NCBI GenBank assembly: GCA_951804945.1
Contig: OX638152.1
Location: 46,376,001-46,440,000, forward strand
DNA: 64,000 bases
From: Podarcis cretensis
Taxonomy: Eukaryota
Direction of reading: 5' to 3'
A program made the position numbers and the translations under genes. The first letter of the stretch is position 1. Every line of letters begins with the position of its first letter. A model generated the notes under the pieces. The model saw nothing but the letters and a program-made list of their open reading frames with translations, made no database searches and was not told the DNA's origin. Positions 16,710-40,269 of the stretch are shown piece by piece.

Positions 16710-16840
16710 TTTATCAGGAGAAGGCGCAAGAGAAGAGAAGAAATGGAACTAAAGGGCCTTTCCATAGGTTTTTCTAACCCTTTGGTCCTTTCTTTCCTTG
16801 AAATCTATTATTGAAGCTGATAATTACAAGAATTCTGTAA

Positions 16841-17052
16841 TACCACTCCCCTTCTCCAGGGGGGTGGAGTTGCTGGCAGGCATCCCGGAACACCCTGTAA
16901 CCCGGCAGGGGGCGGAGTGATGCCGCCCGCGTCATTGGGACTCCCAGCCACGTCATGCCCTCTGGCTGACCAATCAGGTTAGCCGGGGGCATGGCCACTG
17001 CCGTTTAAATCGTGGTGCAGCTGGGGGCGGCAGCCTCCTTTTCGCCTCCTCG
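16841..17052 (+). mobile_element. 212-bp GC-rich insertion with LTR-U3-like promoter motifs, flanked by 17-bp direct repeats
   Basis: TTACAAGAATTCTGTAA at 16824-16840 and 17053-17069; GC box at 16908-16915, CCAAT at 16970-16974, TTTAAA at 17004-17009, pyrimidine tract near 17035-17051. Confidence 0.75.
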
Positions 17053-17114
17053 TTACAAGAATTCTGTAACTTGCTTTTCTCCCTCTCCAAACTTGAAAGC
17101 CTGAATGCAGGGAC

Positions 17115-17195
17115 TGTTTTATAAGACACTCTGTGAGCTCTTTTTTTTGGCAGAAGAGCAGGATTGAAATGCTCTAAATAAATAATAAATAAATA
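17115..17195 (+). mobile_element. L2/MIR-type 3' tail fragment
   Basis: TGTGAGCTC...GAAGAGCAGGATTGAAATG...(TAAA)n, typical of L2-family 3' ends. Confidence 0.55.
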
Positions 17196-19516
17196 CTTGG
17201 TCTTGGCTCCTATGCAAAATCCTCAATCTGCTTTTCAAACTTGGGAGGATGCACAATTTAGTCAAATGAGTTCCTCGCTGGAATCATTTGGTTTTGCAAT
17301 ATGACCTTGCCTCTGAAATCAAACATAAAATGAAGATCTTGTCACAATTTGTAGTTTTATTACCAATAGTACTTAGTAAGCTTTCAGTATGTTCCCAACT
17401 GTTAATTAGCTTCATGTCATTGAGAGCAGATTGACAAAATTTCTAGTCAGCAGTAATATTGGTTAGAATACATGCTGTTTTTAAAGCGTATGCAAAAAAT
17501 ATTGTGTTTTTTCTTTTTTCCACAGCTGTAGCAAAAGTCACAAGATGCACATGCTTCATGCTAATCACATTGAAATAAAGCAACTGATATACAGAAACTT
17601 GAAATGGGTGGGGAGCACAAACATAGAATCTGCCTGGGTGGTTTCAATTAATGTCATTGTCCAGTACAAGGACAGGATGAGTTGATCCAGAAAAGAAAAC
17701 CTAGCAGCTTGTTTTAACATGAGAGATGCACACTCTGAAATGCTGATAAGGAATTCAAATAACTATTCAGTTGTGACAGCTGTAATCCTTTTTTGAGCCA
17801 GCTATAGTGCATTTGAGAAAAACATGGTTTACTGGGAAAGCTAATGAACGCCATCTTTTCAGAGTCATAGAGAGTGAAGCCCCAAGTTTGAAAGTTTTAA
17901 TTGGATTTCTAAGGGCTAATTCAGTACTGTAGTCGATTAATGTTATAATATAGCTATAGTTGCGAAGTTTAGGAATTAGGTTATTCTCCCCCACCCCACA
18001 ACCCCGGATACATGTCTCTGTACACAGCTGCAAAATACTTCTCCATGTTGAAAGAATAAGTCCTTCCAGAACATGAAAGATTGGAGAGAATTTTGCTTAA
18101 GTTTTCTAGGGTATGGGTGGGGAACCTCCAACCTGCAGGCCAAGTTTGGTGTGTGAGGCTGCTTTCTCCACAAAGCTTGCACCACATGTGTGTATCCCCT
18201 ATATCCCCCAATACTAACTTTGATTGGAGTTGTCACTCAGGCTGCCCCTTAGTCCCATTTATTGGGTTTGGTGTTTTATGTGTGTATGTGTAGCATGTTT
18301 GTTTTGCCTCTCCACCCCAGCCTCACACTGCATACTGAAGAGCTTGACATGTTAGCACTCTAAACTACGGTACATTCCTTTAAAAAAAAAAAGTACAATT
18401 AACAAATGGTAAGGAAGAGTTGTAGAATGCAGATACTGCATAGAACTGCTAGTGAGTTCACTGCTAAGCTGCCTGTATCAGACTCATCTGTGCAGATGTA
18501 TTGGTCTGTTTTGAGTGGATGTCTGGCAAAATCAGAAGTGGGTACTTTACCTCAATCCCCAGAGCAATCCTCCTACTGTTTCTAAAGAAAATAAACCATT
18601 TTCTTTTGCTGTCTGCAATAAACACAGCTGAAGTCCATTGAGTGTGGAAGTTATTTGCAAGATTTATAGGACAGAATAAGTTGTCCTGGTTATAGTGTAA
18701 CATGAATGCACTGTACGTTTACTAAGTACCTCGTGAAAGAGAGAGCATGTGCAGGAAATGGAAGAAGTGATTATGGTTCTTGAATAGAAAGTAAAGCATA
18801 GCCTTATGGTCACTTCTTTGGACTTGGGGGGGCATTGCTTTATGAAAAGAGAAGATAACAACATTACACTGAAGACGTGGTTGATTTAGAAATTTAAGAG
18901 GTGGTGGCTGGCAAAATAGGTTGGGGAATGAGAAGTCTTGGGAGAGGCTGCTTCTATTCTGTCAGATATAAATTCTAGTTTCTGCTAGACTTTATGTAAT
19001 ATGAACGCCACTGTTGTTTTGTATTTTGATTTAATAACTTTTGTTTTGAAGTGAACGTTAATAACACCTCATCCTCCAGATTTACTGACCACTTGAGACA
19101 TTTGTCAGTTGTAAAATAGACTTATGATAGGGGATATTAGCTCGGGGGAGAAAAATGGTATAATTTTGCACACAGATGTTACGTTTCTGTAGTATAAAGA
19201 GCCATTGTTTATATCTGAAGGTTTCCAGTTCAGTATGTCAGGCAGAGGAAATAACAATCTCAGGCAGCATTTTGTAGTTAGCAGTGTGAGGAGATAAGTC
19301 AATACATATACCAATATATTGATTAAAGACTAGAAAACCATGTTTGTCTTAGAAATTATGTGTTGCTTTTAATTACATTTCTGTGTTTGTGGCATCTCTT
19401 GTATACAGAGTTCATGTACAGTTCCACCCCCCACCCCCTTGTTCCTCCACTCACAGGATTTTATATTTCTGGTCATTGAAGCCTTCAGAAACAAAACACC
19501 TAAGATTTATCTAAAA

Positions 19517-37217: not shown

Positions 37218-38736
37218 GGCTACAATGTCTGTCAGGAGGATGGCGTAGCAGGTGGTAAAGAGTCCCTTGAAGAAGTAATGATGCTGCCAACACAGTGATT
37301 CTGATTGCATTCTGATCTGATTGCTGTTTCATTATTAATTCCTCTAGTCTGGGATAGAAAAGGTCTGGTGTGCTGCTTCTATATTCTAAGGAGCCTTCTG
37401 GTACCAGCTGTGTTGACACCTTGTCTCTTTGCGATGAGTTCAGTGTCAAACTGATGAAGGGAACTGGACACTTTGTGCAGGCACTTCAGATGCTTTTAAA
37501 ATGTGCTACCTTAGAGTATCTAATAATTTTTTTAGGGTGAAAGGCACAGTACTCACCCATCTCTCTCCTCCTCTTTATTTCCCTCTCTCTGTACTTGGAT
37601 ATAGCAAGCACTTTACACTTCTTTGTTAATCTAAGCTAGTTAATTGGTTCTATTAAGAGAATTTAAGATCAAAGTGGGGAAATATCTTATTGAGTAAATA
37701 TGGAGTGCGGAAAGTATCATAGTTGTGACTGAGGTCCTCTAGCTACTCACAATGGATAAAAATGACAGAATTTTGCCTATTATGCAGCTCAAACAGGAAA
37801 GGAACATCAAAAGGATGATAGTATCTGATAGGTGTTAGAAGCTGGAATTTCCATATGCCTTTGAAGTTTGATCTAGTATATAAAATAGAGATATGTTATA
37901 TTTTCCTTCCAGCATAGCTTGCCTGAGACTCATAAGATGCAAAATTGTGATTTCATATTACACCATATTTCTGTGTATCAGCTGAAGAACTGGAATAATT
38001 CACCCTTTATCCCTCTCTTATACCTGCCTTTCAGAAATGCAGCCCCCTTCCCCCACAAAAAGCTTTAAGAATTATATGGGGTACTGTTTCAAATAACTAA
38101 TTTTGTCCATGCATCCTGACCTTCTGGTTTAGGAGCTTTGTGGGTGAAGTTGAAGAGTATGAATACCTTCTCTCTTATGCCTTCCTGAGAGAATAGTTTG
38201 TTTTTGTTTCACTCAGTTGGAATCCATGTAACTGAACACTTGTCACTTTCAATTTCATTTTGGAGAGTTTAGGTTTGTACAGCTGAGACGGAGAGCCTAA
38301 TTTGGTTTGTAGAAGTTTAAACTACTGGAGGTATATGAAACGAATTTACCTATTAGATTATCAAGACTGATTTTACAAAATCAGTGTGACAGATAACATT
38401 TTGGGTTGTTACAGTCACCAGAGAATGCCTGCATGGAGCAATGTTATCCATATAGCTTAAGCTAGCCTAACGGACTAAAGCTGGACTAAACAATTAATAT
38501 TTACTTGTGGAAGAGCATACAGACTTTAAGAGTAAACTTAAAGAATGTGTACTCCTGAACCATGCAAATCTATTTGTGGGCCCATTCGCAGTGAGCCTGA
38601 GGTTGCCAGAGTAGGGGCACAGGAAGCAATAAATGACATGACAATATTTTTGGGATTGAGATGGCCACGACTTTATTGATTACTGATGTCAGTAGGCTTT
38701 GGAATAGGCATTGGGTATTGGAATAGGCATTGGGTA

Positions 38737-39094: not shown

Positions 39095-40269
39095 TGTATC
39101 CTAAATCAACCTGCCCAATTGCTGGCTGATTACTTCATCAGGGTCAATCCTGAGTTAAGGATCTCTATAGGATGTACATCAAATGTGGGCGAACACTCCA
39201 GGACACTATTTGGGGAATTCTATGGCCTGATACCCCAATCTGGGTATATGGAAAAGATCTTTCCCCTTGGACCTCTTTATGAGGGTACACTGATACTTTG
39301 ATCTGGAGGAAAGGGGGCAAGACTCCTTCCCACCCCCTCTGATTAGACTAAGGATCCTACTCAATGCCTTTTGCCACCAGCAAGTAGTGACAGTTGCTGT
39401 AAGGTAGGCAAAACCTCCAGACCAAACCAATTTGACCGCAGGCAAAATCCTCCCCAGTCCCGAATACAGTGACTGAGTAACTTCTCATACACATGCACCT
39501 CCCACTTACCTTTGGACAGGGCCAAAGCATGCAGAGTGGGAGGTCAGTTGCCAACTGTGCTGCAGGAAGCAAGCACAACCAATTCAAATGGGACGGAGAC
39601 TGACCTGAGCAAAGACAGGCTTGACTCAAGTCTGCCCCACAACCTGGCCATGACTGGCCAATTCACAGTGGAGGTGAGGAAGTGTCCTGTCACTCCCCAC
39701 AGCCAGCTGAGCCAGTTGATGTTGCCAGCTGTCTGTCTGGGAAGCCTACCCTCCAAATCCCGCCTACCCTCCCAGCTGCAACTGCTGAAAAGTTAAAGCA
39801 GGAGCACAACTAAGATTAATTGTTACATCCAGACTAGATATAAAATGCAACTGAGATTCCAGTGACTTTGTGTCTTTGGTGGGGTTGATAATGGCAGATA
39901 AAATAATAATGTATAATCCTTGACTGGTCTCTTAATTTCTGTTTTATATAAATACAGAGTAGCATTCATATAAGAAACAGTTTGTGCTACTACCCCAAAG
40001 CCATAAACATTTTAATATGCTGCAGCCAAAGCCTCCCTGTTGTAAGGGAAACTTCACTGCATCTTCACTCTAGTCTCAGACTTGACTGTGATTGTTGGAG
40101 GAAGAGGTGCTTACATGAATTTATCAGCATATTAGTTGTTTATGGTGTACAGTACTATTCTACTTTCATTGTACTAATTACCTATATATGGAAAACTTTG
40201 AGAAGGCAGTAACACATTTGTTTAAGCAATGGTCCTATCACTTTACCTTTTGTCTGTATATATGTGTGT

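Follow-up and report, generated by a model that had tools for sequence, protein, structure and literature searches.

The closest described relatives of the locus reported here are the Ngaro elements of the order DIRS. The hydrolase-bearing type of vertebrates, such as DIRS-53_XT of Xenopus, is described as having the layout A1-ORFs-B1-A2-B2, with RT/RH, a recombinase, an SGNH hydrolase, and an A repeat of 236 bp (PMC9210276). Solo AB repeats have been reported for the Ngaro of Cafeteria (PMC8547959), and SIRE is given as A2 plus B2 of VIPER (PMC6681497). The integration of DIRS and Ngaro cDNA by the recombinase has been modelled and little tested, and the cDNA of DIRS-1 is described as single-stranded and mostly linear (PMC7192593). 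Among other integration systems, the one-ended integration of retroviruses (ASLV and HIV-1) is reported to leave one end normal and the other truncated, together with large duplications or deletions of host DNA (PMC5041404), and the integron integrase, acting on attC and attI, performs a single strand exchange that is resolved by replication (PMC3458562).

The locus lies in a stretch of 64,000 nucleotides from Podarcis cretensis (GCA_951804945.1, contig OX638152.1, positions 46,376,001 to 46,440,000, forward strand), which is referred to here as the window. Judged by its sequence relatives, the insert comprises nearly all of the A terminal repeat of an old, decayed Ngaro family. It is a fossil remnant of a retrotransposon class already known and not a self-contained mobile promoter. 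The features of the locus are as follows.

16824..16840, + strand: host target, left copy of the duplication, ending in AA, the usual host joint of the family (from the AA counts at intact ends; the 17-mer pattern is missing at the junctions of the other 85 loci)
16841..17054, + strand: A terminal repeat of the old Ngaro family, beginning at its normal first base and stopping about 4-6 bp before the A boundary GGATC(A) (72-84% identity to 39 other scored matches)
16908..17009, + strand: promoter-like motifs of the A repeat, namely GC box, CGTCA-like motifs, CCAAT, and TTTAAA (motif scan; promoter role by analogy with the DIRS-1 left repeat)
17053..17054, + strand: 1-2 bases common to element and target at the second junction, a possible microhomology (from the triplet before GATC in sister copies)
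17053..17069, + strand: right copy of the duplicated host 17-mer, with unique flank beyond it (identity to the left copy; flank comparison)

The two copies of the 17-mer are identical, as a sequence-only reading of this DNA had noticed, stand 229 bp apart, and form the sole exact non-simple 17-bp direct repeat of the window at a spacing of 100-400 bp. The insert between them (16841-17052) is 212 bp long with 66% GC and 13 CpG, and its observed/expected CpG ratio is 0.57 vs. 0.24 across the window. The same reading had described a CpG-rich, promoter-like insert with a GC box (16908-16915), CCAAT (16970-16974), and TTTAAA (17004-17009) and with no poly(A) tail, and each of these motifs was confirmed in place, with no tail in the sequence of the insert. 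These motifs are traits of the family, CCAAT being present in 59 and TTTAAA in 52 of 67 copies of the A repeat. The CpG count is high and not unique (6 of 66 sister copies contained 13 or more), and TTTAAA lies 51 bp from the end of A at this locus against a median of 55 bp in 27 sisters. In the sisters, the three bases preceding GATC were GTC in 10 of 34 and GTT in 7 of 34; thus the first two bases of the right 17-mer (17053-17054) may be derived from the element. No long ORF was found near the cassette. A decayed 3' tail of a high-copy repeat with terminal TAAA units occupies 17118-17197, approximately 50 bp from the cassette.

The genome search with the insert (1.5 Gb, 51 contigs) gave 40 scored matches of 75 candidates, and the 17-mer was absent from the 29 other loci that were fetched. 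Most sister copies extended approximately 600 bp past the right junction of the index locus to a fixed end, forming a unit of approximately 800 bp bounded by AA|GACC at the start and CACGC|AA at the end. After further searches, the family survey comprised 86 distinct loci. The identity of a solo LTR or ERV was rejected for this family on account of these ends, with neither a 4-6-bp duplication nor TG...CA, and that of a SINE or a LINE-mobilised retrocopy was rejected on account of the missing tail and of complete copies without duplication. Five loci (L127, L144, L131, L157, and L172) retained both ends but little of the middle; L144 has A joined to approximately the final 20 bases of B.

A PF00589 profile search of the genome yielded 19 matches, and sequence downstream of 10 of these recombinase loci was matched by the 800-bp unit (E below 1e-14). 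When eight recombinase loci were extended to 10 kb, the layout A1-ORFs-B1-A2-spacer-B2 was complete in three. The complete elements, which fit the definition of Ngaro given in PMC9210276 and PMC3783388, have A repeats of 212-219 bp, B repeats of 419-437 bp, and a distance of ~810 bp from A2 to B2, and the terminal repeats of these intact relatives of the old family are direct, not inverted. The ORFs of L055 matched Pfam RVT_1 and Phage_integrase, with a GDSL hydrolase match below the cutoff; no methyltransferase domain was matched among the six ORFs of this element, which is an intact relative and not a member of the decayed family. These elements thus share with DIRS-53_XT the split-repeat layout and a short shared junction in place of a duplication, with an A repeat of slightly different length. 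The loci L041-L049, L051, L055, and L088-L117 include a very young Ngaro family with 96-99.9% identity, intact recombinase ORFs, and identical split repeats, and at least two further Ngaro families have full-length members; by these sequence features, the young families were likely active recently. Thirty loci of the young family comprised 15 A1 and 14 A2 in full elements and one solo unit. In one young copy (L054:6922-10000, element orientation), a 186-bp tandem array starts at the end of B2.

The 800-bp unit of the old family aligns end to end with A2-spacer-B2 of the intact Ngaro elements, with 76-79% identity in the spacer and the A boundary GGATCA in both. Direct alignment of the index A with the A repeat of the young elements scored -3 and did not rise above shuffled sequences (maximum 8.5). 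Because the index A and the young A have diverged beyond alignment, the link was tested through a query in which the hydrolase remnant is joined to a cassette-like A, which retrieved 30 loci (L258-L287). The B repeat of the old family was preceded there by remnants of the hydrolase (29 of 30 loci), the recombinase (7), and the RT (3), with a cassette-like A upstream in 6; the family therefore shows both A-coding-B and A-spacer-B arrangements. The index insert, as far as sequence comparison reaches, is tied to Ngaro through the spacer, B, and the coding remnants and not through direct alignment of A. The suspicion of the sequence-only reading that a tyrosine recombinase was involved is borne out in that the insert comes from a Ngaro family with recombinase remnants.

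Compared with Ngaro elements as described, the index locus retains only a truncated A and a host duplication, and its parent family is decayed, with no B1|A2 copy among those examined: exact patterns of the B1|A2 junction had 0 matches, and 0 of 19 mapped B ends continued into A2. The 800-bp unit of the old family, as well as 31 of 60 loci of two younger families, are solo A-spacer-B units of the kind known as solo AB in Cafeteria and as SIRE. B1|A2 is kept in the young families. Such units could arise in either of two ways: homologous recombination between the repeats collapses them, or A2-spacer-B2 is excised by the recombinase as a circle that could reinsert. Solo AB units have both ends and no duplication, whereas the index locus lacks the spacer and B. 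Stretches of ~9.9 kb beside truncated copies (n = 20) contained a single hydrolase remnant and none of the RT or the recombinase, which indicates that the A-only copies are not the left ends of surviving full elements.

Normal copies of the family meet the host at an AA dinucleotide without target duplication. In the old family, AA stands before 32 of 64 intact 5' ends and after 48 of 57 intact 3' ends, and in the young family it directly follows all 15 B2 ends. An anchored flank duplication was missing in 47 of 48 complete copies. The crossover of the old family, read from these junction sequences, falls on the AA at one edge of the 17-mer and not on its centre. Since TTACA-N6-8-TGTAA occurs at the junctions of the index locus only (1 of 86 loci), the palindromic 17-mer belongs to the host and represents neither an att core nor an LTR end.

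The duplication at the index locus recurs elsewhere in the family. The scar test sought, downstream, a copy of the left flank ending at the element junction, and was applied to the 72 of 86 loci with an intact 5' end; another 11 were 5'-truncated with a B end, and three, truncated at both ends by BLAST, were unscored. Such duplications were found in 5 of 24 copies without a B end, against 1 of 48 with both ends and 0 of 400 random flank pairs (Fisher p = 0.014, or 0.035 without the index locus). Copies that other repeats interrupt or that the edge of the locus cuts off were kept among the 24, none being dropped. The sole both-ended case, L018, is a GATA microsatellite and was rejected as a duplication, as was a tandem repeat at L207. 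The left-anchored cases are given below.

index locus: duplication of 17 bp
L139: duplication of 17 bp, 16 of 17 identical, non-palindromic; break 2 bases earlier than at the index locus
L015: duplication of 31 bp, after 176 bp of unassigned sequence
L013: duplication of ~45 bp
L007: duplication of ~95 bp, interrupted

In all five, the duplicated stretch stops at the element junction or no more than 1 base from it, 150-400 bp away from the break. On the 797-bp reference, four of the five breakpoints fall within positions 165-222, and the region 235-797 has none, a clustering that was noted post hoc with A repeats as queries. Within 260 bp, the remaining 19 of 24 copies without B had no anchored duplication; widening the search to 9 kb for 17 of the 24 added only a (CT)n repeat at L164, which was not accepted.

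The same scar exists in mirror orientation. In L084, one of the 11 5'-truncated loci with a B end, 51 bp of the right flank, counted from AA, are repeated on the left. The mirror test, which was set up after the prediction, was applied to the 19 of 30 hydrolase-query loci with a mapped B end (3 of the 19 already in the first set), and one of them, L280, carried a duplication with 136 of 143 bases identical that adjoins a hydrolase remnant (score 101 vs. a null maximum of 12). On either side, therefore, duplications of 17 to ~145 bp, unrelated in sequence, are anchored to a normal element junction. Microhomology at the second junction is short, with 1-2 nt at the index locus, none evident in L139, ~1 in L084, and up to 6 in L013. 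The aberrant junction thus joins a truncation to target DNA lying 17 to ~145 bp back across the normal junction, with little or no microhomology. Among 60 loci of two younger families, no truncated-plus-duplicated copies were found, a weak test as the ranking favours whole A repeats.

The reading that we consider reasonably probable is that the index locus is a truncated Ngaro A insert whose 17-bp repeat is host DNA that was duplicated by one-ended recombinase integration, with host repair finishing the other end. The Ngaro tyrosine recombinase would have joined only the left element end, at the usual AA site, and the free, broken right end would have been joined by host replication or end-joining to the target 17 bases upstream. 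The structure of the scar needs an empty copy of the target as template, which the target itself would supply most simply while integration is under way. The duplication thus likely dates from the integration event, that is, from one strand exchange, or an incomplete cDNA, followed by replication or end-joining. The breaks near the end of A would coincide with the predicted transcript start, where reverse transcription would have to switch template; the model of Goodwin and Poulter reportedly places transcript start and template switch near the A end. Deletions would also be expected among the outcomes of one-ended integration.

The index locus shares with aberrant retroviral integration the structure of a single normal junction and a host change of variable length, but the retroviral reaction is performed by a DDE integrase on linear double-stranded DNA, whereas a tyrosine recombinase would act here, through a mechanism deduced from old copies only. 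The point in common with the integron is a tyrosine recombinase with a single exchange and host replication resolving it; there it is the normal, precise pathway of bacteria, whereas an abortive side route in the vertebrate germ line is proposed here. Copies that are truncated, have one exact junction, and carry a host duplication of variable length suggest a reaction that stopped halfway, and they provide a countable genomic signature. For annotators, a long "TSD" around such a Ngaro fragment need not mean a LINE-type insertion or an att site. A literature search, which covered mostly open-access papers and not the original Ngaro descriptions, found no description of a junction-anchored duplication scar in Ngaro or DIRS, nor do the passages covered from PMC13465315 describe one.

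More tentatively, at somewhat less than an even chance, the Ngaro recombinase may regularly perform one-ended integration in the vertebrate germ line, through strand exchange at AA, an incomplete cDNA ending near the A-end template switch, and host replication or repair. If so, tandem duplications of host DNA and isolated inserts consisting of a promoter alone would be traceable to Ngaro, and the scars would preserve a record of the chemistry by which retrotransposons of this class integrate.

The alternative that survives best, although we regard it as unlikely, places the duplication later: a normal Ngaro or solo AB was inserted first, and a break within it, in a heterozygote, was repaired by switching to the empty homolog at a point 17 bp upstream of the insertion, so that the remainder of the element was lost and the flank was duplicated. 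This predicts the identical structure, mirror cases included, and is consistent with the heavy deletion of the old family in other ways and with the lack of a young scar among the younger-family loci. The duplicate pairs of L084 and L280 are 94-95% identical, whereas sister B repeats have a median of 86%; being less diverged, they allow a later origin. On the other hand, the clustering of breaks near the A end is unlike random breakage, with the reservations about that count given above.

Deletion of the 3' part of the element together with some flank, with the end-joining gap filled by a short copy templated from the left flank, appears improbable. Polymerase-theta end-joining yields short templated insertions, and the 17-mer is able to form a weak hairpin; however, such a fill would have to account for copied segments that end at or next to the junction in every left-anchored case, far from the break, and for the ~145 bp of L280.

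We give very little credence to a LINE that copied Ngaro-derived RNA by target-primed reverse transcription with a 17-bp target duplication. Seventeen bp is a typical length for LINE duplications, and L139 has the same length; however, the insert has no tail, consists mainly of sequence ahead of the predicted start site, and starts precisely at the DNA end of the element. The tail-less retro-insert of the sequence-only reading fails as well, since in every case it is the recombinase junction, on either side, that forms the precise end, and the duplications range far beyond 17 bp.

The notion that the palindromic 17-mer is the own junction of a small circle or mini-LTR, integrated site-specifically, can be dismissed almost entirely, for although active recombinases are present in the genome and both copies fold with 6-bp arms, the motif is confined to one locus, the four other left-anchored duplications have no terminal arms, the L139 twin has nearly the same break with a non-palindromic duplication, and the crossover lies at the edge of the 17-mer. 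No sister has the TGTAA...TTACA ends of the supposed mini-LTR, the family instead running ~600 bp further. The genome search and flank comparison that the sequence-only reading had proposed revealed no recurrent TTACA-N7-TGTAA junctions, and the insert proved to be a piece of a longer terminal repeat, an outcome which that reading had itself named as refuting its proposal. The hairpins of the two copies are weak, at -2.1 and -2.6 kcal/mol, values reached by 23 and 6, respectively, of 200 shuffled sequences, and 5-bp arms occur in 15 of 6364 window 17-mers ending in AA. In 16823-16841 and 17052-17070, the arms reach 6 bp by using the adjoining bases (A..T on the left, G..C on the right), one of which is element-derived, with a chance of ~1 in 16. 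The near-palindrome may be due to chance or may have aided repair.

Eight of 22 sequencing runs were compared with the locus. Contigs from all six DNA or unclassified runs among them, from six organisms besides the best-matching one, bridge both junctions, which indicates that the insertion is older than the split of these organisms; the other two runs, presumably RNA, yielded only short pieces. The sequence-only reading had proposed a check of related lizards for an empty orthologous site with a single 17-mer; the site was filled in all six related organisms, with no joint skipping the insert. Since no empty site was read in the relatives, we infer the pre-insertion state of the index locus. 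Many contigs from related organisms match only 17143-17185, within the high-copy repeat tail. The motifs of the A repeat are likely the retrotransposon's own promoter, by analogy with the left repeat of DIRS-1 (PMC7192593). CpG retention is within the family range and gives no sign of exaptation; a host role of the insert is unsupported.

A phage-type integrase in a 428-aa frame was also retrieved (L031, G000:C29:4761-5231; E 8.6e-25); its contig differs from the Ngaro recombinases in having 58% GC without CpG depletion and is probably a bacterial contig in the assembly. Within the window, a second Ngaro-like B/spacer remnant, more decayed than the first, is present on the - strand at 38651-38716 and 39384-39415.
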